A stretch of DNA of 64,000 bases. Source: Erysipelotrichaceae bacterium. GTDB taxonomy: Bacteria; Bacillota_I; Bacilli_A; Erysipelotrichales; Erysipelotrichaceae. The DNA is taken from the NCBI GenBank assembly GCA_015058845.1, contig SVBO01000001.1, positions 3,934 through 67,933 of the forward strand, given 5' to 3'. Made by a program: the position numbers and the translations under genes. Shown in pieces: positions 1-64,000 of the stretch. The notes beneath the pieces are model-generated. The model worked only from the letters and a program-made list of their open reading frames with translations. It ran no database searches and was not told where the DNA came from. Position 1 is the first letter of the stretch, and every line of letters begins with the position of its first letter.

Positions 1-981
1 TAGATTATATGGTCTTTCCCCTTCCTTACGACCATCGATATGTCTAGAATAATTCTCGATACCAGGACAGATCCCGAATTCTCTCAATGATTCTAAGTCA
101 TATCGAACACGTTGTCCTAAACGTTCTTCTTCTAATGGTTTACCTTCCTTGGCAAAGTAAGCAAGTCTTTCTTTTAACTCTTCCTCGATCGTTTCACAAG
201 CTCTTAGTACAACACTCTTACTATTCGCATATCCATTGGCAGGATATACTACATAGACGGAATACGCTTCCTTAACGACTCCTGTTAATGGATCTACTTC
301 CGTAATACGTTCGATCTCATCGCCAAATAACTCTACTCTCAAAATCGTAGCATCCGTATGACCAAACCCTATCTCGATCACATCTCCACGTGCTCTGAAG
401 GTACCTCTCTTTAGATCGATATCATTTCGTGAATATTGTCTTTCTACAAGTTTGCGCATTAGGTCTTCTCGAGAGATCTCCTCTCCTACGCGGATCGTGA
501 AGAACATGTTGTGATATTCAGTTGGGTTAGAGGAACCATAGATACATGCTACAGACGCAATAATGATCGTATCTCTTCTTTCTAATACAGAGTTCATAGC
601 TGCCATTCTTAGCATATCTAATTCCTCATTAGTAGTAGCATTCTTATCGATATACGTATCTGTCTTAGGTAGATAGGCTTCTGGTTGGTAGTAGTCAAAA
701 TTAGAGACAAAGTATTCTACTCGATTATGCGGAAAGAATTCTTTGAATTCACTGTATAACTGTCCTGCTAGTGTCTTATTATGTACGAATACTAAGGTAG
801 GCTTATTGACTCTAGCGATCACATTACTGATCGTGAAGGTTTTACCTGTTCCTGTAGCTCCTAGTAATACTTGGACATGTTTGTTATCTTTGACACCTTG
901 TACTAATTTCTCGATTGCTTGTGGTTGATCGCCTGTTGGTTTATAAGGTGCCACTAGTTGGAATAATCTCTCTTCACTCAT
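1..981 (-). CDS. uvrB: excinuclease ABC subunit B, N-terminal part (gene runs off left edge)
   Basis: Absent from the ORF track because it is truncated. My minus-strand translation from the ATG at 981 gives MSEERLFQLVAPYKPTGDQPQAIEKLVQGV..LLGATGTGKTFT..FDYYQPEAYLPKTDTYIDK, typical of UvrB. ATGA overlap with the stop of the upstream gene. Confidence 0.9.
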   Translation of the reverse strand, partial: MSEERLFQLVAPYKPTGDQPQAIEKLVQGVKDNKHVQVLLGATGTGKTFTISNVIARVNKPTLVFVHNKTLAGQLYSEFKEFFPHNRVEYFVSNFDYYQPEAYLPKTDTYIDKNATTNEELDMLRMAAMNSVLERRDTIIIASVACIYGSSNPTEYHNMFFTIRVGEEISREDLMRKLVERQYSRNDIDLKRGTFRARGDVIEIGFGHTDATILRVELFGDEIERITEVDPLTGVVKEAYSVYVVYPANGYANSKSVVLRACETIEEELKERLAYFAKEGKPLEEERLGQRVRYDLESLREFGICPGIENYSRHIDGRKEGERPYNL

Positions 982-2459
982 TCTTTGATCCACTCCAATG
1001 CTTTCTTCATTTGAAGATCATGTTCTTCTCTCTTAGCAAACCAATTACGGAAATTCGCTGCTACGATCTCTTGGTATGTTGTATTATCTAAGATACCATC
1101 TATCTCTAAATTATGATCCTTTTCAAAATTCTTTAAAGCAGTTTCAGTATCCTTAGAGAAATATCCATCTTGGCGATCTACACTATATCCTAGATAGTCT
1201 AACATCTCTTGTGTTAATACTGTATAAGAACTAACAGAATCATATCCATATTTCTCATTCTCTTTTAATGTAACTGCATTCTTGTATACATCTTCATTCT
1301 CTACATAGATATCTGGTTGGATCCCTGTTCCATTGATCGTATTTCCATTTGTTGTTAACCATTCAGCAGTAGTATATCTTAGAATACTACCATCTCCCAT
1401 TACAAGTGGTACTTGCATAGTACCTTTTCCATAAGTAGTAGTACCAATAACTGTAGCTCCTAATCCTTCTTGTAGAGCTGCTGTGAGTACTTCTGCTGCT
1501 GAGGCTGTACTTCCATTGACTAATACTGCGATCTTTGAGAATGTATATGGATCTTTATTAGTGGATACATCCTTATCGATCTTACCATCTCTATAACTCT
1601 TCTGAATGATCACTGTACCCTTTGGTAGTAAATAATTCCCAATAGTCACTAATGAGGATAAATATCCACCTGTATCATCTCTAAGATCTACGATCAAGTT
1701 CTTGATCCCTAAGATCTCCATCTTAACTAATTGTGTTGCTACTTCAGAAGCTGTAGAATCAGCAAATGAAGAGATAGTTAATACAGCTGTCTTATCATCT
1801 ACTTGTTTCATATACACAGTAGCTTGTACCATAGCTCTAGTCATTTCTAGAGTCAATTCTTTCCCATCACGTAATACCGTAATAGCCACTCTAGTACCTT
1901 CCTCACCACGTACCATAGATACTACTTCATCCGAAGTATGTCCCTTGACACTCACACCATCTACCGCAATGATCTCATCTTTCGTCTTTAATCCCCCTAC
2001 TTCAGCAGGAGAAGATGGATATACCTTATCCACCATAAAGATATCATTCACATGGAAGATCGAGCAACCTACGCCACTTAACGTACCACTTAAGGAATCT
2101 GTGAAATCAGTCGCCTCATCTAAAGTCATATAAGAAGTATGTAAGTCTACCTCGCTCATCATCATGCCATTGATCGCTCCTTCGATCAACTCTTGTTCTA
2201 GGTTCTCTACATTTTTCCCGAAGTACCATTGATTCTTCATTACACTATATGCCTTATGAAATAGATCTAAGTGTTCATCACCATAAGTAATAGTAGAAGA
2301 TACTCTTGGGATCATGCCACTACTTACGATCCCTAATAGGAAACAGACTACGCCTGTGGCAATGAAGCCTAGTACTAAGCGTTTACGTCTTTTCTCGCTA
2401 GCGATCTCATCTGGCCATTTGTGTCTTTCTAGTTTATATATTACTGAACGTTTACTCAT
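978..2459 (-). CDS. S41 family C-terminal processing peptidase with N-terminal TM anchor, PDZ domain and C-terminal PG-binding-like repeat
   Basis: 493-aa ORF. PDZ-like GLKTKDEIIAVDG, S41 core LRDDTGGYL and VNGSTASAAEV, C-terminal LDYLGY..DG.F motif. Confidence 0.85.
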   Translation of the reverse strand: MSKRSVIYKLERHKWPDEIASEKRRKRLVLGFIATGVVCFLLGIVSSGMIPRVSSTITYGDEHLDLFHKAYSVMKNQWYFGKNVENLEQELIEGAINGMMMSEVDLHTSYMTLDEATDFTDSLSGTLSGVGCSIFHVNDIFMVDKVYPSSPAEVGGLKTKDEIIAVDGVSVKGHTSDEVVSMVRGEEGTRVAITVLRDGKELTLEMTRAMVQATVYMKQVDDKTAVLTISSFADSTASEVATQLVKMEILGIKNLIVDLRDDTGGYLSSLVTIGNYLLPKGTVIIQKSYRDGKIDKDVSTNKDPYTFSKIAVLVNGSTASAAEVLTAALQEGLGATVIGTTTYGKGTMQVPLVMGDGSILRYTTAEWLTTNGNTINGTGIQPDIYVENEDVYKNAVTLKENEKYGYDSVSSYTVLTQEMLDYLGYSVDRQDGYFSKDTETALKNFEKDHNLEIDGILDNTTYQEIVAANFRNWFAKREEHDLQMKKALEWIKE

Positions 2460-2620
2460 TGTTATTTCTCCATTCTACTTATATATTGCTTCTTTTCTAT
2501 AGAATAAGTCTATAGATATTCTTTCAAATTATACCATACATTATATCTTAGGTTAACTAAAAGATGGTACTTCCTATGTATTAATAATAGTAGATGTAGT
2601 ATTCTAGGAAATTAGTAAAT

Positions 2621-2638
2621 GGCAGGGTGATCCCTGCC
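2621..2638 (-). terminator. hairpin ggcaggg-tgat-ccctgcc downstream of the 2658..3368 gene
   Basis: 7-bp GC-rich stem with 4-nt loop, then a moderately T-rich tract on the minus strand. Confidence 0.5.
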
Positions 2639-2657
2639 ATTGGTATATGCCTTATAT

Positions 2658-3368
2658 TTAAATGTTACGAATAGCTGTATAGATCTTATGAGCAGTTTGC
2701 TCTATAAAGTCTTCATACTCTTGGATAGAGAAGAAGTATCCACTTCCTTTGATATCTCTCCACTCTTCATATTCCTTCAACATGATCGGGATCTTTCTAG
2801 TAATAGCTCCTGTAGGAAAGAAATCTATATAGTCTGGGAAACTTGTAGTAGTGGGTAAGAGTGTGTTATAGCTACATTGAGGATGATCTTGAATATACTG
2901 ATTCTCTAACTCAATGATATCCGCATAGATATTCCATCTACCAAAAACTTCTTTTAAAGTATCGAATGTTTCAGGATATCCTTCGATCTTCTTAGCCATT
3001 TCTGGATCTGTTTTAATTCTCTTGAAACATGTTTGGATACGTTTGGGATCTCTGCTGAATGCTTCATGATACATGATATCTGTGATCAAATGGGAATAAT
3101 ATCCTAGTAGATAAGAGTAATGTTCTTGGGATAAGAACTTCTGATCTTGGATATATTGTACATAGAAAGTCTCTGGATCAGATGTATCTTTCATTTCCCC
3201 TTTCATGAAATGTGTAACTTCTCTAGAGGGGATATAGGCACTCCAGTCTTCATTCTCAATATTACAATCTGGTGCTATATTTCCAATACAGAATCCTCTT
3301 TTATCTACTTCTAGTCCCATCTCTAATAGAACATCTGCAATTCTTGTATGTGTGATCCAATTAGCCAT
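2658..3368 (-). CDS. hypothetical metal-dependent hydrolase-like protein (possibly zinc phospholipase C-like fold)
   Basis: 236-aa ORF with His-rich N-terminus (WITHTRIAD) and an HLITD motif. Function not securely recognised. Confidence 0.4.
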   Translation of the reverse strand: MANWITHTRIADVLLEMGLEVDKRGFCIGNIAPDCNIENEDWSAYIPSREVTHFMKGEMKDTSDPETFYVQYIQDQKFLSQEHYSYLLGYYSHLITDIMYHEAFSRDPKRIQTCFKRIKTDPEMAKKIEGYPETFDTLKEVFGRWNIYADIIELENQYIQDHPQCSYNTLLPTTTSFPDYIDFFPTGAITRKIPIMLKEYEEWRDIKGSGYFFSIQEYEDFIEQTAHKIYTAIRNI

Positions 3369-3910
3369 TATACTCTCCTCATCATCCAGTATACATCCGC
3401 ATACGTACCATCACTATACTTCATATCATGTGGATGTGTCCCATAGATCTCGAACCCTAGACTCTTATATAACTCTACAGCCCTAGTATTCTCAGTAACT
3501 ACCTCTAATTCTATTTGCTCTAAACCCATATCCTTAGCGATCTCTAGGAGTGCTAGTACCATCTTCTTACCAATGCCCATACCTGTATACTTTTGGTATA
3601 GTGCTATTCCTAGATCCGCTTTATGTCTACATCTCTTAGGAGAATGTCCATTCAAAGAGCAATTTCCTACAAACTCTCCATCTAAGAATGCTAGTAACAT
3701 AATACTATTCTTTGCATTATTCATCATTTTGATAAAGTTTTGTTCTTGTTCTACGCTAAAGGTGATCTCATCACTCTCTTTTAGTAAATATCTAGTTTCT
3801 GAGCATGTTACTTTCAGATAGTTGATCAACATCTGAGCATCTTCTTCTCTAGCATTTCTTAGGAGTAATTCATGTCCTCTATGTTCTATACTAATATCTT
3901 GTATCTTCAT
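3368..3910 (-). CDS. GNAT family N-acetyltransferase
   Basis: 180 aa. Acetyl-CoA motif YQKYTGMGIGKKMV and C-terminal GF..YG pattern typical of RimJ/RimL-like GNATs. Confidence 0.8.
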   Translation of the reverse strand: MKIQDISIEHRGHELLLRNAREEDAQMLINYLKVTCSETRYLLKESDEITFSVEQEQNFIKMMNNAKNSIMLLAFLDGEFVGNCSLNGHSPKRCRHKADLGIALYQKYTGMGIGKKMVLALLEIAKDMGLEQIELEVVTENTRAVELYKSLGFEIYGTHPHDMKYSDGTYADVYWMMRRV

Positions 3911-3919
3911 ATCTGCCTC

Positions 3920-4405
3920 CTAGAATATATGTAATGGTGTAAATACCACATGGTCTTCTACTGCTGTTCCTGTATAAATGTGGGTAGTATGTCTACCTAT
4001 AGAGAGATAATGATCGATCATATGTTTGGCTGTAAAGGGCATGTTGAGGGATCGTATGTCATTTAATACATACCATTTCGTATCTCCTTCTTGAGAAGGT
4101 ATATCTTCTTTATACTTTAATAATTCAGCAAAGTAATAGTAATTGATACGAATCTCATCATTCACATGTCTGATACAGATGTATCGTAATTGAAGATCAG
4201 TAATATCTTGTTGTGTCATATGTAATTCTTCTTGTAATTCTCTTAAGACACAGGCTTTAGGGTCATTTACTTCCCATTCCTCAAAGTGTCCTCCTGCTGA
4301 GCCTATCCAAGAATCACTGATGACTTTCGAATTCTTTCGATATAACATCAATACTTTTCCTTGGTATTGTAGATATACTGTTGCCATGTTTCTAAGTGTA
4401 CTCAT
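3920..4405 (-). CDS. NUDIX hydrolase
   Basis: 161 aa. Nudix box GGHFEEWEVNDPKACVLRELQEEL. Confidence 0.8.
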   Translation of the reverse strand: MSTLRNMATVYLQYQGKVLMLYRKNSKVISDSWIGSAGGHFEEWEVNDPKACVLRELQEELHMTQQDITDLQLRYICIRHVNDEIRINYYYFAELLKYKEDIPSQEGDTKWYVLNDIRSLNMPFTAKHMIDHYLSIGRHTTHIYTGTAVEDHVVFTPLHIF

Positions 4406-4407
4406 AG

Positions 4408-5274
4408 CTACTCTCCTAAGAACTTCTTGATCTCTTCTATTCTCTCTAATGCTACTGCTCTACCGATCTCATAGACTACTTGTAGTGTATTAGGATCTTT
4501 CTCTACTCTACCAATAGGTAGTTTCTCATTAGGTCTAATGACATATACTTCTCCTGCTTTTTCTTTCTCTAGAATATACTGGATCGTTTCGTTATACATG
4601 ATATGTCTATTAGCCATGGCTTCTACTAACTTTGGATATTGTTTATATTTACGTTTAATGATCGGCATTAATCCGTTTGGTTCTTTGATATATCCTTGTG
4701 GTTGTGTGAGTACTACGATGTTCTTGTTATATCCTAGGGATTCAAAGTGTTTTAGTGGAATAGAATCAGCAATTCCTCCATCTAGTAGTTTCATGCCATC
4801 TATCTCTACGATCTTAGAGACGACTGGCATCGCAGATCCTGCTCTGATCCAATCTAGTCCTACTTCTACACCCTGGTCTTCAAACTTCCAGTATACTGGC
4901 TCTCCTGTTTCGATATTAGTACATGTAATATAATATTCCATAGGATCTTGTAGATATGTTTCATAGTCGAATAGGTCATGTACTAATGGTACTTCTTTGA
5001 AGCAGAATTCTGCACTGAATAGATTACCAGTCTTTAAATAAGAATAGATCCCACCATATCTCTTATCATTACAGAAACGCTTATTATATCGGATCCCTCT
5101 ACCAATTTGATGAGATTTATAATTCACACCAACACCAGCCCCTGCACTTACACCGATCGCTCCATCCAGTACGATCCCATGCTCCATCATGACATCAATG
5201 ACACCACATGTGAACATGCAACGCATAGCACCACCTTCTAATACTAACCCCTTCTTGATCATTTCCTCACGCAT
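4408..5274 (-). CDS. patatin-like phospholipase family protein
   Basis: 288 aa. Oxyanion motif LEGGAMR, nucleophile elbow GVSAGA, DGG near the C-terminal half. Confidence 0.85.
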   Translation of the reverse strand: MREEMIKKGLVLEGGAMRCMFTCGVIDVMMEHGIVLDGAIGVSAGAGVGVNYKSHQIGRGIRYNKRFCNDKRYGGIYSYLKTGNLFSAEFCFKEVPLVHDLFDYETYLQDPMEYYITCTNIETGEPVYWKFEDQGVEVGLDWIRAGSAMPVVSKIVEIDGMKLLDGGIADSIPLKHFESLGYNKNIVVLTQPQGYIKEPNGLMPIIKRKYKQYPKLVEAMANRHIMYNETIQYILEKEKAGEVYVIRPNEKLPIGRVEKDPNTLQVVYEIGRAVALERIEEIKKFLGE

Positions 5275-5353
5275 ACTAACACCTTCTTTATTTGTTATCT
5301 TTTAATATAACTGAATCAGAACTAGAATGCAAGATAAGGCTAAAGAAAGACAC

Positions 5354-5385
5354 AAAAGGTATGACTCTGTATCAAAGCCATACCT
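5354..5385 (-). terminator. intrinsic terminator after the 99-aa ORF
   Basis: aggtatg/catacct stem followed by TTTT on the minus strand. Confidence 0.5.
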
Positions 5386-5396
5386 CTTAGTTACTA

Positions 5397-5696
5397 TTAC
5401 TTTTTCTTCTCGAATCTCTTCTTACCGTTTTCGTCTACACCAAGTAAATATAATTGCCAGTCTAGAACACCAGTCATTAACTTCTCATTCTCATCAGCAG
5501 CGAATTTCTTACGCCATTCTACTAACTTTTTAAGTTGAGCAGCTTCATCTCCTCTACTGAAGTCGATATCTTGATCTTCTAAGAACTTGAAACTGATCCA
5601 AACTTCTGGTGCAACGAATAGGTCGCTGTCACCCATTACTTGATCTCTTTTTACTTTGTCTTGGTACATTTTCCAATATTGTTCTGAAACACTCAC
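5397..5696 (-). CDS. hypothetical small acidic/basic protein
   Basis: 99-aa ORF with an RBS-like aaggaggaatt upstream and its own terminator. No motif recognised. Confidence 0.5.
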   Translation of the reverse strand: MSVSEQYWKMYQDKVKRDQVMGDSDLFVAPEVWISFKFLEDQDIDFSRGDEAAQLKKLVEWRKKFAADENEKLMTGVLDWQLYLLGVDENGKKRFEKKK

Positions 5697-5760
5697 GCTA
5701 AATTCCTCCTTATATGCGTATATATTGTAAACTTGTTCTTATATTCTTACAAGTTTAAAT

Positions 5761-7224
5761 TTACAAACTATAAGACTTACCTACCTTTACATTCCATATT
5801 TCTAATGGATTATAACGACAAGGTGCCTTGTAATTCTTTTTGTTACAAGTCGTTGTAAGACCTGCACTACCCCAACCAAGACCAAAGTCAAATTGACCTT
5901 TGTTAGAGAATTCCTCGATCACATCTACTAATGGAGTCGTACCAAAGTAGAATACCTCGATATGAGAATGTGGACCAGAGGAGTTACCAGAAGATCCGAC
6001 TTCTCCGATCTGTGTTCCTTGAAGTACTGTTACCGCCTTACCATCTTTACTAGGCCATTCGATATACTTACTAACACCCTTTGCCATATGACCGATCTTC
6101 ACAGCATATGTCTTACCATCGACCACCATCGCTAGTACCACATGGTTACCAGCTCCAGCACTACCAGGAGTACCACACCAGTTACCTAGTCCTCCATAAG
6201 TTGGACATCTATCACTCATGAATAATACTACTGAGTTAGCAGGGGCATAGACTGGTGTACCTACATTAGCAGCAAAGTCTGTTCCTAGATGTGGACACTT
6301 ATTGGCTCCAGCACTACAGAAAGAAGCTGGATAATAGAAAGAACCTGCACTGATATAGAAGTTATCTACTGGATAGATCCATCCTGTAGATGGAGTCAGA
6401 GTTCTTAGACTTGATAAGTCTGATACAGCTCTCTTGATCTCTGATAAGTTTTGAGCAGCTTGTTGTTGCTGTGCCTCGATCTCAGCCGCTTTTAAATTAT
6501 ATTCAGCAAGCAATGCTTGTTGTGTATTCTGTGTACTTACTAGAGAACTCTTTTGTTTCTCTAAGTCAGTCTTTTGATTCTGTGCTGTTTCTTTTTGTTT
6601 CACTAAGATATCTCTATCTTTTACTAATAAAGCCTTTTGTTCTTCTAACTTCTTGATCTGTTCCTTATCATAGCTAGTAATACTATTTACACCCTCTACA
6701 CGACGGATCAAGTCTACAAAGTCTGTAGCCCCCATAATGAAATCAGCAAAGGCATTGACTTGAATGATCGATTGGATCGCTTCCATTCTAGCTCTGATCC
6801 CCTCATCCGTAGAAGCAATATCCTCTTCTCTATCTTGGATCTGTTTCTCTAATAATGCAATATTCGTTTCCAATGTTGCGATAGACTTAGTAGTAGAGGT
6901 AATAGAAGTATTCTTTTGCTTGATCTGATTAGATAGACTATTCAAAGCAGATTGTAACTTAGAAATATCTTTCTTCACATTATTCAGATCCTGTGTAATA
7001 CTCTCTAACTCCTTAGCAGCTGCATCACTTTGATCTGACATATACGCATAGAAAGCATCACACACTTCCTCATCCTCTTCACTTAGATCCATAGCAGTAC
7101 AATAGTTATAATAATATTCCTCTTCCCCATCAAACATCGATACTGCTGTCACATTTACAGAAGGAACGATACAGAAAGTAAGAATCGCTAATAATACACA
7201 TAGTATCTTCTTCACACTCTTCAT
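5761..7224 (-). CDS. secreted coiled-coil M23 (LytM-type) peptidoglycan metalloendopeptidase, probable FtsEX partner
   Basis: 487 aa. Signal/TM at the N-terminus, then ~250 aa of heptad-rich Q/K/E/L sequence. C-terminal M23 motifs HLGTDFAA and SSGPHSHIEV (HxxxD and HxH present). Directly downstream of ftsX. Confidence 0.85.
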   Translation of the reverse strand: MKSVKKILCVLLAILTFCIVPSVNVTAVSMFDGEEEYYYNYCTAMDLSEEDEEVCDAFYAYMSDQSDAAAKELESITQDLNNVKKDISKLQSALNSLSNQIKQKNTSITSTTKSIATLETNIALLEKQIQDREEDIASTDEGIRARMEAIQSIIQVNAFADFIMGATDFVDLIRRVEGVNSITSYDKEQIKKLEEQKALLVKDRDILVKQKETAQNQKTDLEKQKSSLVSTQNTQQALLAEYNLKAAEIEAQQQQAAQNLSEIKRAVSDLSSLRTLTPSTGWIYPVDNFYISAGSFYYPASFCSAGANKCPHLGTDFAANVGTPVYAPANSVVLFMSDRCPTYGGLGNWCGTPGSAGAGNHVVLAMVVDGKTYAVKIGHMAKGVSKYIEWPSKDGKAVTVLQGTQIGEVGSSGNSSGPHSHIEVFYFGTTPLVDVIEEFSNKGQFDFGLGWGSAGLTTTCNKKNYKAPCRYNPLEIWNVKVGKSYSL

Positions 7225-7225
7225 A

Positions 7226-9423: not shown

Positions 9424-9439
9424 ACTTAGCTCTCTTACT

Positions 9440-55878: not shown

Positions 55879-55912
55879 TTACTTTTAAGAAAAGAAGTAG
55901 TTGAACTACTTC

Positions 55913-56806: not shown

Positions 56807-56825
56807 ATTTCTTTACCTCTTTCTA

Positions 56826-57560
56826 TTAATACATTACTTTATCTAAGAACTCTTTCGTTCTTGCTTCTTTTGGATGATTGAAGATATCATCTGCACTACC
56901 TTCTTCTAAGATGATACCATTGTCAATGAACATAACACGAGTAGCTACTTCTTTCGCAAAGCCCATTTCATGTGTTACGATCACTGTAGTCATACCTGAC
57001 TTAGCTAGATCCTTGATAACCAATAATACTTCCTTAACCATTTCTGGGTCAAGCGCACTAGTAGGTTCATCGAATAACATTACATCTGGTTCCATAGCTA
57101 GTGCACGAGCGATCGCTACACGTTGCTTTTGTCCACCAGATAATGTATTGGGATACACATCTTTCTTTTCTAATAATCCAACCTTCTTTAATAATTCAAC
57201 AGCCTTCTTTTCGGCCTCTTCCTTAGAAAGACCCTTCACTTGGATCGGTGCTAATGTGATGTTCTCTAGAACAGTCATATTAGGGAATAGATTGAAGTGT
57301 TGGAATACCATTCCAATGTGTTCTCTTACCTTATTAATGTTGAAGTTCTTGTCATCCCTTGTAGTCAGGTTCTGACCCTTAAAGATCACTTCTCCACTAG
57401 TAGGTTCTTCTAACAAGTTCAAGCATCGTAAGAAGGTTGATTTACCAGAACCAGAAGCTCCGATAACTGCAACCACTTCACCTTGTTGAATCTCAGTAGT
57501 AATGCCATTAAGAACTTTTAATTTACCAAAATGTTTATGTAAGTTTACTGTCTTAAGCAT
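56826..57560 (-). CDS. amino-acid ABC transporter ATP-binding protein
   Basis: [35 protein letters not shown] motifs (GlnQ/ArtP-like). Confidence 0.9.
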
Positions 57561-58251
57561 TGTTCAACTTCCTTTCTAGGATCCCTAATAATCCAGTTAA
57601 TGTTGTTGTCATGATCAAGTAGATCACTGCGATCACGATCAATGGTTCAAATTGACGATATGTCAATGATTGAATGATCTTTTGAGTATACATTACATCG
57701 AAGATCCCTAGTGTAGATACTAGTGAAGACTCCTTGATCATCATAATGAATTCGTTACCAAGAGTTGGTAAGATCGTCTTGATCGCTTGCGGTAGAATAA
57801 CAAAACGCATTGTTTGTTTCGCATCTAATCCAAGAGATCTAGCTGCTTCTGTTTGTCCCTTATCGATAGAATCTAAACCAGCTCTGAAGATCTCACATAC
57901 ATAAGCGCCAGAGTTGATACCAAGGGCAAGTACACATCCTGTTAACTTTCCATCTGGATCAAGATATGGAATTGCTGGAATAGGAACACCAATTGCTGGT
58001 AGACCATAACGGATCAACATTAGTTGTAATAAGATCGGTGTACCACGAATGATTTGTGTATACAGAGTAGCTAGTAAGTTAAAGATCTTATACTTAGATC
58101 TCTTACCCAGTGTTGCTACGAAACCTATGACACATCCTAGTAATACTGTGATCATAGATAGTTTCAATGTCATCCATGCACCTTCTATGAAGTAATTCAT
58201 ATAAGGAAGCATTGTTGTGAAGTCTATTTGAATTGCTAATAGTGTATTCAT
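57553..58251 (-). CDS. amino-acid ABC transporter permease (His/Glu/Gln/Arg family)
   Basis: EAARSLG EAA loop. Start set at MNTLLAIQ (58251) after AAAGGAGAGG; the track extension runs through the T-box leader. Confidence 0.85.
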
Positions 58252-58267
58252 CGTATCCTCTCCTTTG

Positions 58268-58500
58268 TATAAAATAAAAATCTCCTGACGATCTGCCAGG
58301 AGACGAATATACCGCGTTACCACTCCGATTGATGATAGTTGACCTATCATCCTCTCTCTCTATTAAGGCTAGCCACCTGATATCCTACTACTTTCAGATA
58401 TCCCCCTCCAAAGTGCGCTTCATTTAGAACATCAGTACCGATCTTCCACCAACATCGGCTCGCTATACCCTATTTCTAACTACTCTCTTCTTCCATGGGT
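58268..58500 (-). ncRNA. T-box leader (tRNA-sensing riboswitch), specifier probably CGC (Arg)
   Basis: Minus strand shows GAAGAAGAGAGTAG (stem I base/K-turn region). The TTAGAA..TTCTAA helix is followed by ATGAAGCGCA. T-box sequence AATCGGAGTGGTAACGCGG. Terminator TCTCCTG..CAGGAGATTTTTATTTT. Confidence 0.75.
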
Positions 58501-58524
58501 TTACATATTTAATTTTATGATTTT

Positions 58525-58552
58525 ATTATACTCACTCCAAATTATTTGTCAA
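58525..58552 (-). promoter_or_regulatory. promoter TTGACA-N16-TATAAT driving the T-box leader
   Basis: Consensus hexamers read on the minus strand. Confidence 0.65.
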
Positions 58553-58580
58553 TCACTTTCTATGTAGTTGTTTCAGGAAT

Positions 58581-58602
58581 TTCATGAAAATATTTTCATG
58601 AA
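58581..58602. promoter_or_regulatory. perfect 22-bp palindrome TTCATGAAAATATTTTCATGAA, ARG-box-like
   Basis: Lies 29 bp upstream of the -35. The core TGAAAatatTTTCA resembles the ArgR/AhrC box TGAATwwwwATTCA. Confidence 0.35.
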
Positions 58603-58610
58603 GTTACAAA

Positions 58611-58637
58611 AGAAAAGTACTGCTATATAGCAGTACT
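58611..58637 (-). terminator. terminator of prs
   Basis: AGTACTGC-tatata-GCAGTACT followed by a T-run on the minus strand. Confidence 0.65.
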
Positions 58638-58642
58638 CGGTC

Positions 58643-59596
58643 TTAGTCTTGGAACATTTCGTAAACGATGCTCATTGACTTCTTAGTTTCGATATATTCA
58701 ATAGTCTTAGCTAACATTGGTGCGATAGAAAGAACTGTGATCTTATCTAACTTCTTTTCTTCTGGTAGAGGAATTGTATTAGTAATTACTACTTCCTTGA
58801 TCATAGGATTGCTTAATCTTTCGATAGCAGGTCCAGAGAAGATACCATGTGTACATGCGAAGTAGATATCCTTAGCCCCTTCATCCTTTAATAATTGAAT
58901 ACCAGCCATTAATGTACCAGCAGTATCACACATGTCATCGATAATGATAACATCAGTACCCTTAACTTCACCAATGATATTCATAGCTTGTGCTTCATTT
59001 GGACGTAATCTTCTCTTATCAATGATAGCTAGTGGAACTCCACCTAAAGCATCACATAACTTTCTAGCACGTACCACACCACCATGGTCTGGAGATACTA
59101 CAGTTACATTCTCTAGTTGCTTAGAGCGGAAATATTGAGAGATCATTGAACTAGCAGTCATGTCATCAATAGGAATATTGAAGAAACCTTGAATTTGAGC
59201 GGCATGTAGATCTACTGTAACAACACGGTTAGCACCAGCTGTTTCTAATAATGAAGCTACTAGTTTAGCTGTGATTGGTTGTCTAGGAGCTGCCTTACGG
59301 TCTTGACGAGCATAACCGAAGTATGGTGTGATGACTGTGATTTCACCAGCAGATGCACGTTTACATGCATCGATACAGATCAATGTTTCCATTAAGTTAC
59401 TAGAAACTGGATTACATGTAGATTGTACGATATACACGTGCTTACCACGTACAGTAGCACCGATCTCTACCATGATCTCACCATCTGCAAAGTGTTTAAC
59501 AACACATGGGAATGGTTCACAATCTAAAATGTCACAAATTTCCTTTACTAAATCCTTTGAAGCATTTAAGCCTAAAACTGCAAAATCCTTGTTCAT
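58643..59596 (-). CDS. prs: ribose-phosphate pyrophosphokinase
   Basis: GYARQDRK and DLHA motifs. PRPP loop IIIDDMCDTAGT. Confidence 0.95.
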   Translation of the reverse strand: MNKDFAVLGLNASKDLVKEICDILDCEPFPCVVKHFADGEIMVEIGATVRGKHVYIVQSTCNPVSSNLMETLICIDACKRASAGEITVITPYFGYARQDRKAAPRQPITAKLVASLLETAGANRVVTVDLHAAQIQGFFNIPIDDMTASSMISQYFRSKQLENVTVVSPDHGGVVRARKLCDALGGVPLAIIDKRRLRPNEAQAMNIIGEVKGTDVIIIDDMCDTAGTLMAGIQLLKDEGAKDIYFACTHGIFSGPAIERLSNPMIKEVVITNTIPLPEEKKLDKITVLSIAPMLAKTIEYIETKKSMSIVYEMFQD

Positions 59597-59611
59597 AATC
59601 CCTTCTCCTTC

Positions 59612-60286
59612 TTAGTCTTTGTTCTTTAAAATGTATCTAATACCGTACCCTTCTTTATTGACCTGCTTAGCACGAGCGATCCCCATGTCCTCACTAGGAA
59701 CATCCTGCGTGATCGTAGAACCAGCAGCAAGTACAGCATAGTCACCAATAGTAACAGGTGCGATCAAGTTTACGTTACAACCAATGAATGTGTTGTTACC
59801 GATCACCGTACGGAACTTATTCTTTCCATCATAGTTTGCAGTAACACAACCACAACCAAAGTTGCACTTCTCACCAACATCCGCATCTCCTAAATATGTT
59901 AGATGAGCACACTTACTACCATCCCCAAAATTGACCTTCTTCATCTCAACAAAGTTTCCAATACGAACATTATTACCGATCTTACAATGTTCTCTAATAT
60001 GAGACATAGGTCCAATAGTAGTATCATGACCCACTTCAGAATTAATGATCCAAGAGCTCTCGATCTTCGTATTCTCACCAATCGTAGAATTCAAGATCTT
60101 ACTATTTGCTCCGATCATACATCCATTCTTCAGGATCGAATTACCTTCAATAAAACAATTAGGATAGATCACAACATTCTCCTCGATCACTACTGACTCA
60201 TCAATATACGTAGTCATAGGATCTAAGATCTTAACACCTTTCTCTATCCATTTTGAATTGATCAAATCTTTATTTACAGTATTCAT
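59612..60286 (-). CDS. stand-alone left-handed beta-helix acetyltransferase equal to the C-terminal half of GlmU
   Basis: 224 aa starting at the GlmU linker. TANYDGKNKFRTVIGNNTFIGCNVNLIAPVTIG..ARAKQVNKEGY parallels the B. subtilis GcaD C-terminus. Sits in the glmU slot between ispE and prs. No uridyltransferase domain, and only 50 nt separate it from ispE. Confidence 0.75.
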   Translation of the reverse strand: MNTVNKDLINSKWIEKGVKILDPMTTYIDESVVIEENVVIYPNCFIEGNSILKNGCMIGANSKILNSTIGENTKIESSWIINSEVGHDTTIGPMSHIREHCKIGNNVRIGNFVEMKKVNFGDGSKCAHLTYLGDADVGEKCNFGCGCVTANYDGKNKFRTVIGNNTFIGCNVNLIAPVTIGDYAVLAAGSTITQDVPSEDMGIARAKQVNKEGYGIRYILKNKD

Positions 60287-60336
60287 ATATCATACCCCAA
60301 TCTATTTTACCAAATATACTATTAAAAGAAAATCCA

Positions 60337-61176
60337 TTATTCGCTAATAATTTTTGTTTTTTGAACAAATTCCTTACTATTTCTAAAGTATAGCATCGCT
60401 CTATCTATCACATCCATGCTCTTACAAAGCCCAAATACACAAGAACCACTACCAGACATCAAACAATGATCAAAGCCTAGTTCTACTAAAGTATTCTTGA
60501 TCTCTTGTATTTTGGGTACTAATCGTAGAGCACTTTGTTCTAAAGAATTTCCTAATACAAAGTCATCCCTTCCCTGTTGGATAGCATTCATAATACCATT
60601 AATATCAGGATGATCACATAAGCTAAGATCTAATGTTTCATAGGCTTCCTTAGTACTTACCCCCTCTTGTGGTTTCACAAGGAATACATGATAGTCTTGT
60701 AAAGCCTTAGGAGAGAAAGGAGTCAATGTCTCACCGATCCCTTCTACCTTCATAGCCTGATTCATAACACAGAATGGTACATCCGCTCCGATCTCCACAG
60801 AAGCTAATGCTACTTCCTCTAGCGGATCAGTGCCATACTCTTTCCAAAGATAACGGATCACAGCCCCAGCATCACTACTTCCACCGCCAAGACCTGCTTG
60901 ATGAGGAATTACTTTGTGTAGATGGAAATGATATTGCTCTTGGATCTGGTATCTTCTCTGCATAAATCGATATGCCTTCATCACCAGATTGCTCTCATCC
61001 ACAGGGATCCCCTCTACATCACATGTCATATACGTATCACAAGTACAAAAAGAGATCTCTAACTCATCTCCAAACTCCACAGGAACCATAATGCTCTCTA
61101 GTATATGATACCCATCTTCTCTTCTACTCTTCACATGTAAAGAGAGATTGATCTTCGCATTTGCTACTACCTTCAT
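60337..61176 (-). CDS. ispE: 4-diphosphocytidyl-2-C-methyl-D-erythritol kinase
   Basis: AKINLSLHV and PHQAGLGGGSSDAGA (GHMP motif). The ATG at 61176 lies just after the rsmA stop; alternative starts at 61191 and 61197. Confidence 0.88.
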   Translation of the reverse strand: MKVVANAKINLSLHVKSRREDGYHILESIMVPVEFGDELEISFCTCDTYMTCDVEGIPVDESNLVMKAYRFMQRRYQIQEQYHFHLHKVIPHQAGLGGGSSDAGAVIRYLWKEYGTDPLEEVALASVEIGADVPFCVMNQAMKVEGIGETLTPFSPKALQDYHVFLVKPQEGVSTKEAYETLDLSLCDHPDINGIMNAIQQGRDDFVLGNSLEQSALRLVPKIQEIKNTLVELGFDHCLMSGSGSCVFGLCKSMDVIDRAMLYFRNSKEFVQKTKIISE

Positions 61177-61177
61177 A

Positions 61178-62032
61178 TTACTTACCTTCATACACACGAT
61201 ATAGAGTCAAGAACTCAGCTAGTGACATACTCTCTGCTCTACGAGAAGGTTCGATCCCTGCTTCTTGTAACTGTCTACTTGCTTCTTCTTTATTTCCTAA
61301 GAACTTTCCATAGTTATTTAGAATAGTCTTACGTCTTTGATCGAAACAAGCCTTTACAACCTGGAAGAAACGCTCTCTAGAAGCCACTTCCTCAATATGC
61401 TCTCTTTGTACGAATTGGATCACAGCAGAGTCTACATTTGGTTTAGGTTCAAAGACTGTGCGTGGTACTTTCATCACTACAGATACCTCATATAGATATT
61501 GAGTAATAACACTTAGTGCATTGTAATCCTTCGTACTTGGTTTGGCAGCAAAGCGATCTGCTACTTCTTTCTGCATCATTACGGTAATGCGATCGATCTT
61601 AGCATTACTTTCAAAGATGTGGAATAAGATCGGTGTTGTGATGTAGTATGGTAAGTTGGCAGATAACATTACATTTCTATATTGTTCTCTTAGTTTTCCT
61701 ACGATACTTGCTACATCGACTGTTAAGAAGTCTTGAAAGATCACTTCTTTGTTATCATATTGTGCTAGCGAATAGGCTAACACTTCTTCTAATCTCTCAT
61801 CCACCTCAAATGCTACGACCTTACCTGCACGCATAGCTAATTGCTCAGTCAAAGCTCCGATCCCCGGTCCGATCTCGATCACTGCATCTTCTTTAGTCAC
61901 TTGAGATGCCTCTGCGATCTTTCTTACGATCCCTGGTTCTGTAATGAAGTTTTGACCAAACATCTTCTTGGTATGTAGATCAAATGTTTCCATGATCTCT
62001 TTGGTTCTTGCTACTGTTGCGATCTCTTTCAT
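61178..62032 (-). CDS. rsmA: 16S rRNA (adenine1518/1519-N6)-dimethyltransferase
   Basis: FGQNFI and VIEIGPGIGALT SAM motifs, NLPYYITTPI. Confidence 0.95.
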   Translation of the reverse strand: MKEIATVARTKEIMETFDLHTKKMFGQNFITEPGIVRKIAEASQVTKEDAVIEIGPGIGALTEQLAMRAGKVVAFEVDERLEEVLAYSLAQYDNKEVIFQDFLTVDVASIVGKLREQYRNVMLSANLPYYITTPILFHIFESNAKIDRITVMMQKEVADRFAAKPSTKDYNALSVITQYLYEVSVVMKVPRTVFEPKPNVDSAVIQFVQREHIEEVASRERFFQVVKACFDQRRKTILNNYGKFLGNKEEASRQLQEAGIEPSRRAESMSLAEFLTLYRVYEGK

Positions 62033-62574
62033 TACTCATTCTCCTTACATACTTCATATAATTCCTCATAACTGATCCCTAATAGATTCAGTCTTGCTAC
62101 TAATGTCTTCGCATTACATTTCCCAATATGGAAATGATCTGCTACTTTTTGTCTGTTTATAGTACTATTTGCCCCTGTTAATCGTAGTGCTACTAACATA
62201 TCCATAGTGATCTGTTCACTTGGAACCTCTTGGAATGTAACACATTTCTCTAGAGCTTCTAATAAGTCTTCTCTATTAGCATGTTCGATACCTACCTTAT
62301 GATTTCCTAGGGCTTTACTTTTCTCTAGGAAGGCATTCTTACAACCTGGAATAGTGTGATTAATGATAGAGCGGATCCTTTCTCCTGGATAATCAGGATC
62401 TGTAAAGATGATCACGCCACGTTTTTGTTTAGCTTCAGCAATATACCCTAGGATCTCTCGACTAATGGCAGAGCCCCCTGTTTCGATCGTATCTACTTCA
62501 AAATATTGTTTCAACACTGCACTATCATGTCTTCCTTCTACTACGATCACTTCTTTAAATTTCATAGTTATCAC
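62032..62574 (-). CDS. rnmV: ribonuclease M5 (Toprim)
   Basis: VIVVEGRHD, IIFTDPDYPGERIR. Conserved position upstream of rsmA. Start either the GTG at 62574 or the ATG at 62565. Confidence 0.88.
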   Translation of the reverse strand: MITMKFKEVIVVEGRHDSAVLKQYFEVDTIETGGSAISREILGYIAEAKQKRGVIIFTDPDYPGERIRSIINHTIPGCKNAFLEKSKALGNHKVGIEHANREDLLEALEKCVTFQEVPSEQITMDMLVALRLTGANSTINRQKVADHFHIGKCNAKTLVARLNLLGISYEELYEVCKENE

Positions 62575-62679
62575 TACTCCCTATTTATATAGTATACCAA
62601 ATTTCAATGGACACTGAAAGAGCAAACAAACATATTCCCAGAAAGCAATTAAAAAGCTTGGCATCTACCAAGCTCTCTC

Positions 62680-63525
62680 TTACAGTTTACAACTATATCC
62701 TTTTTTCTTATACACAAGTCCACCTAAACGCACGATCTCTGCTAGTGGAGTTCTCTTGGATACTGACTTAACATTCTTATTGACCCAGTCCTCACTACCA
62801 ATATAGAAATCCAAACGATTATTCTTGATCGCTCCCCCACGGTCTAAGACGATCGCATAGAATGGTTCATTAGGAGTTAATCCTTCTCCAGAATAATTAT
62901 GGTTCGAGATCTTCAAGATCGAACAGAAAGGAATACTCTTATCTGCCGCTACGATATAATACCCTTCCCAAGTGATGCCTTGTTTCCATGTACCATCTGC
63001 TTGCATAACACCCTTATTCACATCCATCTTGATACCAATAGCAGTATTACCTACACCCGTATATTCTCCTCTACAACCCTCACAATCTACTCCATAACGA
63101 GAGAAACTAGGATTGAAGAATGTACCTTGTTCTACTTTCGCACCAAACTGACGAATACGGGGAGAAGAAGGAACTAATAAGTCTTCTCCTAAGATATGTG
63201 TCTTACTTAATTCATTACCTTCATAATCATATACAACATTGTAATACTTGATCTCCTTTTCAGGAGAACCTGAATCAATTTCCTTCGCTATCCAACTCTT
63301 CTCACCACTTGCTAGAGGAGTCTCTTTCTTAGTATATATAGTCTTTTGCTCAGAAAGAATCGTTTCCTCTGCTACTCTTTCCACTACCACTTCTTCCATA
63401 GTTTCTGGTAGTGCTGTGAATCTTTGCGTCAATACGATCGTATTGGCTTGTTGGCCGTTGATACTGCAAGAACATAGCAATAATGAATACATCATAATTT
63501 GTAATATTCTACATTTTTTCTTCAT
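62680..63525 (-). CDS. YabE-like lipoprotein with C-terminal 3D (MltA-like double-psi barrel) domain
   Basis: MKKKCRILQIMMYSLLLCSCS lipobox. C-terminal IVAAD..ILKI..YAIVLDRGGAI..LDFY. Occupies the yabE position between tatD and rnmV. AGGAGG precedes the ATG at 63525. Confidence 0.75.
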   Translation of the reverse strand: MKKKCRILQIMMYSLLLCSCSINGQQANTIVLTQRFTALPETMEEVVVERVAEETILSEQKTIYTKKETPLASGEKSWIAKEIDSGSPEKEIKYYNVVYDYEGNELSKTHILGEDLLVPSSPRIRQFGAKVEQGTFFNPSFSRYGVDCEGCRGEYTGVGNTAIGIKMDVNKGVMQADGTWKQGITWEGYYIVAADKSIPFCSILKISNHNYSGEGLTPNEPFYAIVLDRGGAIKNNRLDFYIGSEDWVNKNVKSVSKRTPLAEIVRLGGLVYKKKGYSCKL

Positions 63526-63592
63526 TTTGCTACCTCCTTTCATACAACGTGCTATATGATAACACATTTAGTAGGATTTGTCCAATTTCTCT

Positions 63593-64000
63593 TTACAAGC
63601 TGAATAAATCACAGGCATTTTTACTGGTAATAGCTTCCAGTTCTTGATACTCGATCCCCCTTAATCTAGCAATTTCTTCGGCTACTAACTTAACATAATA
63701 TGGATAATTTACCTTACCACGATAAGGATGTGGTGTTAGGTATGGGCAATCTGTTTCTACCAATAGTTTGTCACTTGGTACGGCTACAGCCACTTCCTTG
63801 GGTACTCTAGCATTCTTGAATGTGACAGGTCCTGCTAGGGAGATATAGAAGCCTTGTTTGATGAATTCTGCTGCCATTTCTGCTGATCCACTATAACAGT
63901 GCATAACGCCTTTGACAGGTGTGTAATTGGCTGTGATGTCATATGTATCCATTAGGGCATCACGACTGTGAATGATGATGGGTAGATCATGTCTTCTCGC
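63593..64000 (-). CDS. TatD family hydrolase (YabD), C-terminal part; gene runs off right edge
   Basis: The frame stays open to the window edge: ..ARRHDLPIIIHSRDALMDTYDI.. then GVMHCYSGS, ETDCPYLTP. Confidence 0.88.
   Translation of the reverse strand, partial: ARRHDLPIIIHSRDALMDTYDITANYTPVKGVMHCYSGSAEMAAEFIKQGFYISLAGPVTFKNARVPKEVAVAVPSDKLLVETDCPYLTPHPYRGKVNYPYYVKLVAEEIARLRGIEYQELEAITSKNACDLFSL

Follow-up and report, generated by a model that had tools for sequence, protein, structure and literature searches.

Over-representation of GATC with matching depletion of GATT and AATC in a 64-kb stretch of an uncultured Erysipelotrichales genome

The stretch of DNA analysed here (64,000 nt, hereafter the window) comes from an uncultured ruminant-gut Erysipelotrichales MAG and comprises native chromosomal DNA and one foreign island. 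In the first native part (1..14900) every gene is GATC-rich and GATT/AATC-poor; the gene at 7226-8134, for instance, has 20 GATC vs. 3 GATT+AATC, with 19 G-ATC and neither G-ATT nor A-ATC (hyphens within motifs mark codon boundaries). The island (15000..19300, minus strand, GC 32-34%) carries ORFs of 152 aa (15054-15512) and 744 aa (15549-17783), for neither of which family hits were found, and a tyrosine integrase (18296-19210) in which integrase domains were identified; a search for att repeats found none. It is followed by purC (minus strand) and an fhs-pur-glnA(III) block (plus strand) at 19380..34249, which are native and biased, with conversion less complete (G-ATC 101 vs. G-ATT+A-ATC 28) than in the remaining native genes (402 vs. 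42). The last native part (34271..64000), also biased, has the genes secA, prfB, addAB, comF-like genes, ABC transporters, prs, ispE and ksgA, and loci L001 and L090 are 100% identical to it.

Regarding tetranucleotide composition, the window contains 747 GATC vs. 218 expected from base composition (zero-order), that is one GATC per 86 bp vs. one per 294 bp, a 3.4-fold excess, and GATC ranks top of all 256 tetramers under a maximal-order Markov model (score 1.63), with GATT/AATC scoring 0.52. GATT and AATC occur 207 and 220 times, together 427 vs. 740 expected from base composition. The initial annotation had expected GATC about once per 300 bp, in agreement with the recomputed value, and a ratio of GATT+AATC to GATC of about 4:1, which is corrected to 3.4:1; two of its sample counts of GATC against GATT+AATC were reproduced (14 vs. 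3 and 8 vs. 4), while the one given as 9 vs. 7 is 9 vs. 8. Two codon-aware nulls were applied to the 56 ORFs of the window, a shuffle of synonymous codons within each gene, under which GATC was found 719 times vs. 355 expected (ratio 2.02, z=28.5) with GATT and AATC at 0.61 and 0.44 of expectation, and a shuffle of codon order, under which the GATC ratio was 2.39. The strong over-representation of GATC and the depletion of GATT and AATC claimed at the outset were thus borne out by zero-order, Markov and codon-aware nulls alike. A codon-aware ratio near 1, or enrichment in a few genes only, had been named as grounds for refuting the claim; neither was found, because the ratios in the 56 ORFs were 2.02 and 2.39 and the bias is present in all genes except those of the island. 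GATC is spread evenly (9-37 per 2 kb), its flanks resemble background composition, and 53 of the 56 genes show the bias, which is missing only in the integrase-bearing island (~15.0-19.3 kb). This island serves as an internal control, with 8 GATC vs. 32 GATT+AATC (G-ATC 1, A-ATC 11) in its 744-aa gene and 3 vs. 10 in its integrase.

The bias towards this one tetramer is found at three independent levels, namely Ile codon pairs, Asp-Leu pairs and amino-acid choice. After G-ending codons, 88% of Ile codons are ATC, vs. 30-46% after A-, C- or T-ending ones (OR 15.7 for ATC over ATT after G), and Asp-Leu is written GAT-CTN 77 times vs. 8 times GAT-TTR; both preferences had been noticed in the initial annotation, which was wrong regarding a preference for AGA-TCT in Arg-Ser (AGA-TCT 6 vs. 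AGA-AGT 12, in a frame without enrichment). Before ATC, G is chosen over A with an OR of 11.1, and the effect is thus symmetric between both strands (OR 15.7 vs. 11.1). The ratio of TTA to TTG is 1:50 before ATC vs. 665:65 elsewhere, ATA makes up 6% after G vs. 11% overall, and G-ending codons before Ile amount to 38% vs. about 17-25% in sister lineages. At four-fold sites before ATC, G is raised about 8-fold even relative to T. G-ATC accounts for 72% of the eligible two-fold-codon X-Ile pairs, with odds shifts of 10 to over 100-fold, and no other NNY family depends on a preceding G. Asp vs. Asn before C has an OR of 1.77 (p=5e-7; 0.73 in sister lineages), GAC-C is not shifted to GAT-C, and compared with GATA, GATT is depleted 4-fold; for AATC compared with TATC the factor is about 2.5. 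The proposal of a force acting on the tetramer itself, by way of context-dependent synonymous choices, is supported.

The GATC excess depends on the mutational path, and the single-step neighbours that are depleted are those of the outer-position transition, GATT and AATC, only. In the native CDS of the window, compared with the synonymous-shuffle null, GATC was found 704 times vs. 342 expected (ratio 2.06) and GATT+AATC 337 times vs. 696 expected (0.48, z=-21), so that GATT and AATC together lack about as many copies (359) as GATC has in excess (362). The outer transversion neighbours are unchanged (GATG/CATC 1.01, GATA/TATC 0.98), the inner-position neighbours lie at 0.83-1.18, with the inner transition GGTC/GACC at 1.18, and the double product AATT is reduced to 0.68. 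The effect is confined to position 4 of the tetramer, which is position 1 on the other strand. Regarding reading frame, GATC is enriched in the window lineage in frame 3 (xxG-ATC, OR 10.4) and frame 1 (GAT-Cxx, OR 6.6), and no enrichment was detected in frame 2 (xGA-TCx, OR 0.68-0.8, not significant), in which there is no silent transition from GATT or AATC to GATC and in which synonymous Gly and Arg choices could create GATC. Many Erysipelotrichales relatives avoid GATC, and in such relatives the ORs in frames 3, 1 and 2 are 0.13, 0.28 and 0.40 (frame 2, p=6e-11); the frame-2 test therefore has power.

Synonymous third positions were compared between two strains that are 99.3% identical. Positions of the GATT/AATC type differ at 6 of 30 sites vs. 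0.76% at other A/T sites, and the G/C positions of GATC at 2 of 311 vs. 2.29% at other G/C sites; this comparison shows that the process is still active. An unconverted polymorphic site lies in secA at 39215..39218 (minus strand; codons 391-392, start codon = 1), where the window strain has GAG ATT and two other strains have GAG ATC, and polarisation with three strains shows that here the window strain has recently lost a GATC to GATT. Of the strain differences at GATC that were polarised, both are losses of this kind, and C-to-T suppression at GATC is therefore not strong. The bias is restricted to the lineage: sister lineages at 83% and 77-78% SecA identity are without it, the sister species at 83% showing either no effect or the opposite. 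The same triple signature is present in at least four other Erysipelotrichales lineages, in which the bias was gained independently, suggesting a determinant that can be gained.

Taken together, the pattern looks like the footprint of biased mismatch repair and not of selection for the GATC site. The reading preferred here is a lineage-specific, still active conversion of GATT and AATC to GATC, likeliest through a VSP-like correction of T:G to C:G at GAT[T/G], to which we give about an even chance. The change would be T to C (A to G when read on the opposite strand) and would fall on the outer position of the tetramer, where GATC has its only cytosine, with AATT reaching GATC by way of GATT or AATC. 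A context-specific mismatch correction would resolve T:G in GAT[T/G] toward C:G, and the enzyme would thereby restore deaminated GAT(m5)C; legitimate T:A pairs would also be 'corrected' whenever replication errors or recombination heteroduplexes yield T:G, and hence a one-way drive would arise. Purifying selection on proteins would restrict this drive to silent sites (xxR-ATY, and GAT-YTR for Leu) or to conservative ones (AAT-C to GAT-C, Asn to Asp). The responsible enzyme may be a Vsr-type nuclease or a Mig/TDG-type glycosylase and may be coupled to methylation of the cytosine in GATC, and, extrapolating from about 77 kb and two other strains, the bias presumably reaches across the whole genome.

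The footprint expected of VSP repair was found in the excess of the motif, in the depletion of the C-to-T product and of the double product with other neighbours unaffected, and in an effect that sits at the cytosine position and is reached only via the T-to-C or A-to-G transition. The initial suggestion of a VSP-like conversion of GATT to GATC at the cytosine is thus supported in part, through the predicted footprint (depletion to 0.48, AATT down, frame 2 unenriched). The presence of a foreign island without the bias in the same genome also supports it. Several observations count against it. If a drive acted uniformly on the DNA, noncoding sequence should show it most strongly, whereas the noncoding effect is weak: in 3.5 kb only, 8 GATC were found vs. 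9 expected and 25 GATT+AATC vs. 46 expected, and the internal OR is 2.07 (CI 1.0-4.3), while coding DNA gives 4.8 and frame-3 sites give 10-15. Furthermore, the roughly 8-fold rise of G at four-fold sites before ATC is larger than a simple transition-only HKY model predicts. Of the equilibrium models, 'drive' fitted as poorly as 'selection'. The two polarised GATC-to-GATT losses, and the candidate enzyme genes not found in the DNA searched (next paragraph), also weigh against it.

Regarding candidate enzymes, a vsr gene is of the Pfam PF03852 type, encodes a PD-(D/E)XK nuclease and usually adjoins a methyltransferase gene. No match to E. coli Vsr was found in the window, its flanks (L002/L090) or the loci of enriched relatives, the window and flanks amounting to ~77 kb or about 4% of a roughly 2 Mb genome. 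Likewise, no homolog of E. coli Dcm was detected in the window, 13 kb of flanks and related loci, and tblastn with E. coli Dam and MutH gave no match in the window, the 13 kb of flanks and 1.48 Mb of related loci. More generally, genes for a Vsr, a C5- or N6-methyltransferase, MutH or a Mig-like enzyme were not detected in the window, the flanks or the regions around secA in the other enriched lineages, the small unassigned ORFs are not Vsr-like, and the only methyltransferase-fold genes seen in the DNA searched encode the rRNA enzymes KsgA and RsmG.

Among the alternatives, a methyl-directed mismatch-repair ratchet (Elhai), in which GATC arising by replication error on the new strand is promptly methylated and a MutH- or Sau3AI-like nickase cuts the unmethylated opposite strand so that the error is fixed, is unlikely. 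GATC would here be a by-product of repair, and the methyltransferase could act on adenine or on cytosine. Such a model has been published for the GATC-containing HIP1 (PMC4390886), Mollicutes related to the group have DpnII- and Sau3AI-type systems (PMC12898733), and the ratchet, as a path-dependent mutational process, agrees with the frame-2 result; the transition-only deficit also fits it, mismatch repair handling mostly transition mismatches. However, GGTC/GACC is not depleted although the replication errors concerned are equally frequent, so that the methyltransferase would have to reject inner-position transition mismatches. No MutH-like gene was seen in the window, flanks and related loci, and Firmicutes normally use MutL nicking. 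One GATC per 86 bp is also far above the published saturation of roughly one per kb (PMC4390886).

A context-specific mutator, either a DNA deaminase acting on adenine in 5'-AATC-3' (A to I, read as G) or a side reaction of a GATC-binding methyltransferase at near-cognate sites, would leave the same path-dependent, position-specific A-to-G/T-to-C footprint and would agree with the high turnover at GATT/AATC sites. It is nevertheless improbable: a deaminase specific for single strands would cause a coding-strand asymmetry, which is absent (A-to-G OR 11 vs. T-to-C OR 16), the scarcity of differences at the G/C positions of GATC (2/311 vs. 2.29%) suggests protection as well as creation, and we know of no mutator enzyme of this kind for the context.

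Codon-pair selection at the level of translation or mRNA, favouring NNG-AUC and disfavouring NNA-AUC and NNG-AUU with no involvement of DNA chemistry, is given a similarly small probability. It is consistent with the concentration of the effect in one reading frame (506 vs. 171 expected), with the much weaker effect in noncoding DNA and with the lesser conversion of the fhs-pur block, which is possibly less expressed. Against it, a second frame is affected as well (GAT-CTN vs. GAT-TTR, OR 6.6), as is the Asp-vs-Asn choice before C, the two 'avoided' words are reverse complements and equally affected, and GATT/AATC is depleted in noncoding DNA too. In addition, dependence on a preceding G is unique to Ile among NNY families, sister species at 83% SecA identity show nothing or the opposite, and the codon-pair biases known to us are far smaller than the effects seen here (10 to over 100).

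Selection against GATT and AATC, for instance as a nuclease target or near-cognate site, with GATC rising as the nearest synonymous escape, is very improbable; it would account for depletion in coding and noncoding DNA without a rise of noncoding GATC, but the other escapes (GATA/TATC, GATG/CATC) have gained nothing, AATT is reduced although AT-biased mutation would make it the easiest escape, ATA is rarer after G than overall, and G-ending codons before Ile have increased. Selection for GATC density as such (Dam-type methylation, SeqA-like binding, MutH-type strand discrimination or an epigenetic function), for which the large excess in nearly all genes and the well-known Dam-dependent functions of GATC in gamma-proteobacteria could speak, is rejected as scarcely credible because frame 2 is unenriched despite Gly/Arg synonymous freedom while the same test detects avoidance in relatives, which do use that freedom; the dense Dam-type methylation or MutH-type sites offered as alternatives in the initial annotation predict enrichment by any route, frame 2 included, and density selection is further at odds with the unshifted GAC-C, the deficits of GATT against GATA and AATC against TATC, the unelevated noncoding GATC and the closest relatives without any excess.

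Compared with known systems, avoidance of GATC as a restriction site (DpnII, MboI, Sau3AI or DpnI hosts) is likewise tetramer-specific, lineage-specific and brought about through synonymous choices, and is common within the same order. It has the opposite sign, GATC being 2-fold enriched here, and acts, as expected of selection, in each of the three frames and whatever the mutational route, unlike the bias in the window. In the same 56 ORFs, CCGG was found 2 times vs. 20 expected under the codon-aware null, a deficit of the kind that marks restriction-site avoidance. Helicobacter with a CCGG restriction-modification system is a rare case of an over-represented 4-bp methyltransferase/RM site, its excess being modest (Kr about 1.4-1.5), and neither a specific depletion of a deamination neighbour nor a frame analysis is reported in the portion of the study considered (PMC4687349); in the window, CCGG is almost absent.

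HIP1 (GCGATCGC) and the alternate HIPs of cyanobacteria are also over-represented GATC-containing palindromes, sporadic across lineages and hypothetically linked not to a function but to resident methyltransferases and biased mismatch repair (PMC4390886). HIP1 is 8 bp long and occurs about once per kb, unlike the bare 4-mer at one per 86 bp found here, and plain GATC is generally under-represented in HIP1 cyanobacteria (PMC4390886). The HIP1 octamer occurs once in the window, which does not show a HIP-type palindrome excess.

In the VSP repair of E. coli, the Vsr endonuclease is coupled to the cytosine-5 methyltransferase Dcm and acts at CCWGG. This repair is reportedly responsible for the CCWGG excess and the CTWGG/CTAG deficit in E. 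coli, whose footprint also includes a deficit of CCWAG. To our knowledge, no Vsr with a GATC context has been described. The present case differs in its motif (GATC instead of CCWGG), its Firmicute host, a far stronger effect (72% G-ATC, 10 to over 100-fold odds) and in that no dcm- or vsr-like gene was seen in about 77 kb of the genome. A published summary covers how Vsr works and how degenerate the specificities of the Vsr proteins of Neisseria are (PMC12907096). As in E. coli, a methylatable motif is in excess and its C-to-T product depleted, the double product is depleted as well (AATT here, CTAG in E. coli), and the effect lies at the cytosine position, the process being directional and not selected.

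The window (GC 37.0%) contains 747 GATC, 207 GATT and 220 AATC, where base composition predicts 218 GATC and 740 GATT+AATC, that is, a 3.4-fold excess of GATC and a ratio of 0.58 for GATT/AATC. Against a maximal-order Markov expectation GATC is over-represented 1.63-fold, the top value of all 256 tetramers, and GATT/AATC stands at 0.52. The gene models comprise 56 ORFs, with 91% of the window coding, and a codon-aware null in which synonymous codons were shuffled inside each gene gave 355 expected GATC in these ORFs compared to 719 observed (z=28.5), with ratios of 0.61 for GATT and 0.44 for AATC. The GATC excess and GATT/AATC deficit described in the initial annotation therefore do not vanish under the codon-aware null; the excess is present along the whole window and in 53 of the 56 genes, and the hand counts of GATC versus GATT+AATC in three samples are correct except for a single value, which is 8 and not 7.

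Regarding reading frames (hyphens denote codon boundaries), 506 sites were found in frame xxG-ATC (171 expected), 192 in GAT-Cxx (157 expected) and 21 in xGA-TCx (27 expected). The context-dependent choice of Ile codons that had been suggested is evident, ATC accounting for 88% after G-ending codons and for 30-46% after A, C or T, and a preceding G affects no NNY codon family other than Ile. Before ATC, two-fold purine-ending codons are 89-98% G-ending (AGR 62%, n=13), and TTA:TTG is 1:50, compared to 665:65 elsewhere. Asp-Leu is indeed written as GAT-CTN (77 times, GAT-TTR 8 times); the example of Arg-Ser as AGA TCT fails in the window counts. Asp is favored over Asn before a C-starting codon (odds ratio [OR] 1.77, p=5e-7; 0.73 in sister lineages), and overall Ile usage is 59% ATC versus about 29% in pooled sister lineages. 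All window genes also generally avoid TT where two codons meet: when a T-starting codon follows, 42-59% of Asp, Asn, His and Tyr codons end in C, compared to 3-19% before non-T codons (Asn before C 34%), and C-ending codons otherwise account for 5-20% in this genome, ATC and TTC excepted. An excess of GAC before TTR, considered as specific GATT avoidance, was rejected as such, since it reflects this general avoidance in all NAY codons.

All neighbors of GATC were compared with the synonymous-shuffle null in the native genes, i.e., those outside the integrase-bearing island described below. GATC was observed 704 times against 342 expected (ratio 2.06), and its outer-position transition neighbors GATT+AATC 337 times against 696 (ratio 0.48, z=-21), while the outer transversion neighbors GATA/TATC and GATG/CATC had ratios of 0.98 and 1.01, inner-position neighbors 0.83-1.18, and the double transition AATT 0.68. 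The GATT/AATC deficit (-359) equals the GATC surplus (+362). The excess arises solely via GATT/AATC to GATC, a T-to-C change at the tetramer's only cytosine.

The evidence places the bias at the DNA level: it is strand-symmetric, operates in two frames and on amino-acid choice, and is missing from the island and from sister species. GATT and AATC, reverse complements of each other, are hit about equally (OR 15.7 and 11.1). The result for noncoding DNA does not fit: in 3.5 kb (ORFs of at least 45 aa masked, island excluded) there are 8 GATC versus 9 expected, GATT+AATC is depleted (25 versus 46), and the internal OR is 2.07 (CI 1.0-4.3) versus 4.8 in coding DNA. A first estimate of 29 GATC in 5.8 kb of intergenic DNA was inflated by small genes, and the enrichment was mostly gone after masking and the further exclusion of the island. 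Other enriched lineages show a similar two-fold noncoding effect (p=0.012). This weak effect could stem from the small, functionally constrained sample, from GATC being selected against in regulatory DNA, or from a process that depends on transcription or recombination.

The foreign island at about 15.0-19.3 kb (15000-19300; GC 32-34%), which is without the host GATC bias, encodes a tyrosine integrase (18296-19210, minus strand), and its 744-aa gene has 8 GATC versus 32 GATT+AATC. The 744-aa and 152-aa ORFs of the island had no Pfam, NCBIfam or PADLOC match, and no att-like direct repeats were found flanking it. The purC / fhs-pur-glnA(III) block (19380-34249) is less fully converted, with 101 G-ATC versus 28 G-ATT+A-ATC, compared to 402 versus 42 in the other native genes; lower expression, later acquisition and stronger constraint are candidate causes. 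Two RNA elements exceed the gathering threshold of Rfam: a ZTP riboswitch (20193-20274, plus strand), which precedes the fhs/pur operon, and a T-box leader (58296-58504, minus strand), which precedes an operon for an amino-acid ABC transporter.

SecA and its surrounding 22 kb are identical to contig Ga0318466_10004418 of JGI metagenome 3300031555, and the NCBI SecA protein cluster is assigned to MAGs of Erysipelotrichales/Erysipelotrichaceae. Two further strains were recovered, L096 (GCA_017533375.1; 99.3% identity over 22 kb) and L097 (GCA_017439705.1), both as GATC-rich as the window. An alignment of the window strain with L096 shows 155 differences in 22,356 bases. At synonymous third positions, the G/C of G-ATC sites differed in 2 of 311 cases (0.64%), compared to 2.29% for other G/C positions, and the T or A of residual G-ATT / A-ATC sites in 6 of 30 (20%), compared to 0.76% for other A/T positions, which makes the few sites that remain unconverted young and short-lived. 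By three-strain parsimony, the secA GAG ATT at 39215-39218 is a recent loss from GATC. Both of the polarised events at GATC are losses, which argues that C-to-T at GATC is not strongly suppressed mutationally, and the main action of the bias may be to raise reconversion or to skew fixation in the manner of gene conversion.

The nearest other lineages by SecA identity, L088 (83%) and L086 and L087 (77-78%), are unenriched, with ATT/ATC after G of 32/3, 74/30 and 68/12, respectively, and synonymous-shuffle ratios of 0.75-0.99 for GATC and about 1.0 for GATT. CCGG is nearly absent from the window (4 in 64 kb versus 75 expected; codon shuffle 2 versus 20), absent from L096 and L097 and normal in L086 and L087, and CpG observed/expected is 0.60; the scarcity of CCGG looks like a separate, lineage-specific restriction-avoidance footprint.

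A wider survey of 80 SecA loci, taken from GTDB species representatives, shows GATC avoidance in most of the low-GC relatives; Anaerorhabdus, for example, has 0 G-ATC versus 47 G-ATT. Avoiders including L009, L010, L043, L054, L055, L066, L071, L081 and L084 strongly avoid GATC in three frames, and noncoding DNA of GATC-avoiding relatives has 16 GATC versus 41 expected, which makes GATC a contested site throughout Erysipelotrichales. A triple signature of raised GATC, lowered GATT/AATC and mildly lowered AATT was detected in the lineages L046+L039, L017, L023, L027 and L018, which lie apart in the SecA tree, each beside unbiased neighbors. Enriched genomes include CALVBC01 (E22__bin136), CALVCT01 (E21__bin185), JAILQT01 (Solobacterium sp. 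RUI365) and CADBPK01 (RUG14176). This scattered placement in the tree indicates that GATC enrichment has been repeatedly gained and lost, as expected of a mobile or easily evolved determinant. In L046 and L039 (uncultured Erysipelotrichaceae E22__bin136 and E21__bin185) few Ile codons are ATT whatever base precedes them, and an A-ending codon hardly ever stands before Ile (9/663). This suggests a three-base context (ATT to ATC / AAT to GAT) instead of a four-base one, in keeping with a variable specificity.

The likeliest cause, to which we give roughly even credence because the pattern matches the Dcm/Vsr footprint, would be an activity correcting T:G to C:G in a GAT[T/G] context. Its partner would probably be a Sau3AI-type methyltransferase producing GAT(m5)C, and either a Vsr-type nuclease or a Mig/TDG-type glycosylase could do the correcting. 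In E. coli, very-short-patch repair by Dcm/Vsr is said to shape the frequencies of CCWGG, CTWGG and CTAG. Shared with that footprint are the motif excess, the missing deamination product, the reduced double product and the position of the cytosine. The mechanism of Vsr proteins and their variable, sometimes degenerate, context specificity have been summarised (PMC12907096).

Regarding the genes for such a T:G-correcting system, E. coli Vsr, Dcm, Dam and MutH were used as tblastn queries on the window and on related loci totaling 1.48 Mb, and the one match was weak, Vsr-like and in L068, an unbiased relative. Pfam, NCBIfam and PADLOC yielded no DNA methyltransferase or nuclease candidate among previously unannotated ORFs, and no candidate enzyme gene was detected in 13 kb of flanking sequence (3.8 kb left, L002; 9.5 kb right, L090). 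The right flank (L090 1-9500) contains rsmG (gidB), parA, two parB genes and mnmE, which places the window near the replication origin. A 166-aa ORF after addA (53181-53681, plus strand, overlapping the addA end) was rejected as a Vsr; it is similar to TM1012, a putative nucleotidyltransferase (PDB 4hx0, E=1e-8). JGI metagenome loci with the Vsr motif F[VI][DH]GCFWH in AT-rich codons gave at least 120 matches, with no GATC-up/GATT-down signature among the matches listed. The Vsr-like conversion of GATT to GATC first hypothesized agrees with the footprint (path and cytosine position); as no enzyme gene was found in the window, flanks and related loci, the enzyme and the type of methylation are inferences.

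The strongest competitor is the methyl-directed mismatch-repair ratchet that Elhai put forward for the cyanobacterial HIP1, which contains GATC (PMC4390886); this ratchet is likewise path-dependent but leaves the untouched inner transition neighbors GGTC/GACC unexplained. We consider it rather improbable that the cause is an unfamiliar GATC-context base- or gene-conversion machinery unrelated to Vsr/Dcm, tied to transcribed or translated DNA and mobile enough for independent entry into at least five Erysipelotrichales lineages, although such a tie would explain why synonymous sites in coding DNA are affected 10- to >100-fold and noncoding DNA barely touched.

The idea that GATC is selected as a site, be it on DNA (dense Dam-type methylation or MutH-type sites in the initial annotation) or on mRNA, is rejected because the excess is path-limited, as seen in the neighbor ratios, in frame 2 (xGA-TCx) and in Asp codons. 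In frame 2 GATC can be formed via silent Gly/Arg choice, yet no silent transition leads to it from GATT/AATC; here the OR was 0.68 (not significant) in the window lineage, compared to 10.4 in frame 3 (xxG-ATC) and 6.6 in frame 1 (GAT-Cxx); the other enriched lineages have an OR of 1.17 in frame 2. The GATC-avoiding relatives, a positive control for DNA-level selection in this test, are depleted in all frames (OR 0.13 in frame 3, 0.28 in frame 1 and 0.40 in frame 2, where p=6e-11). Asp before C showed no shift from GAC to GAT. Equilibrium Markov models of selection on GATC and of boosted transitions, with 12 states combining four-fold codons and Ile codons, were equally poor fits, both with a log-likelihood of about -1207 compared to -1143 for the saturated model. 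A HIP1-type explanation was rejected, GCGATCGC occurring once in the window and GATC flanks being unremarkable.

If the bias is a repair-driven drive, it would be by far the strongest known rewriting of synonymous sites by a repair or modification system, having fixed the Ile codon and the third base of the preceding codon, moved overall codon usage and even tilted Asn toward Asp before C, all after divergence from a sister lineage whose SecA is 83% identical, and it would predict a novel enzyme that acts on T:G mismatches in a GATC context. The coexistence of enriched, neutral and avoiding lineages in one bacterial order offers a natural experiment on drive versus selection. The pattern also calls for caution with codon-pair and codon-usage models presuming translational causes, and as a compositional signature it is sharp enough to help in binning and in dating DNA acquired horizontally, the unconverted island being an example.

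Overrepresentation of restriction-modification or methyltransferase sites is rare. Among thousands of genomes surveyed, CCGG in Helicobacter stood out as overrepresented, with a Kr of about 1.4-1.5, and GATC was treated as an avoided site (PMC4687349). In the full-text literature searched, neither overrepresentation of GATC in Erysipelotrichales nor a Vsr with GATC context is described. Compared to these known cases, the bias of the window reads as a repair-linked oligonucleotide drive that is unusual in its motif, its strength and its clean natural contrasts.
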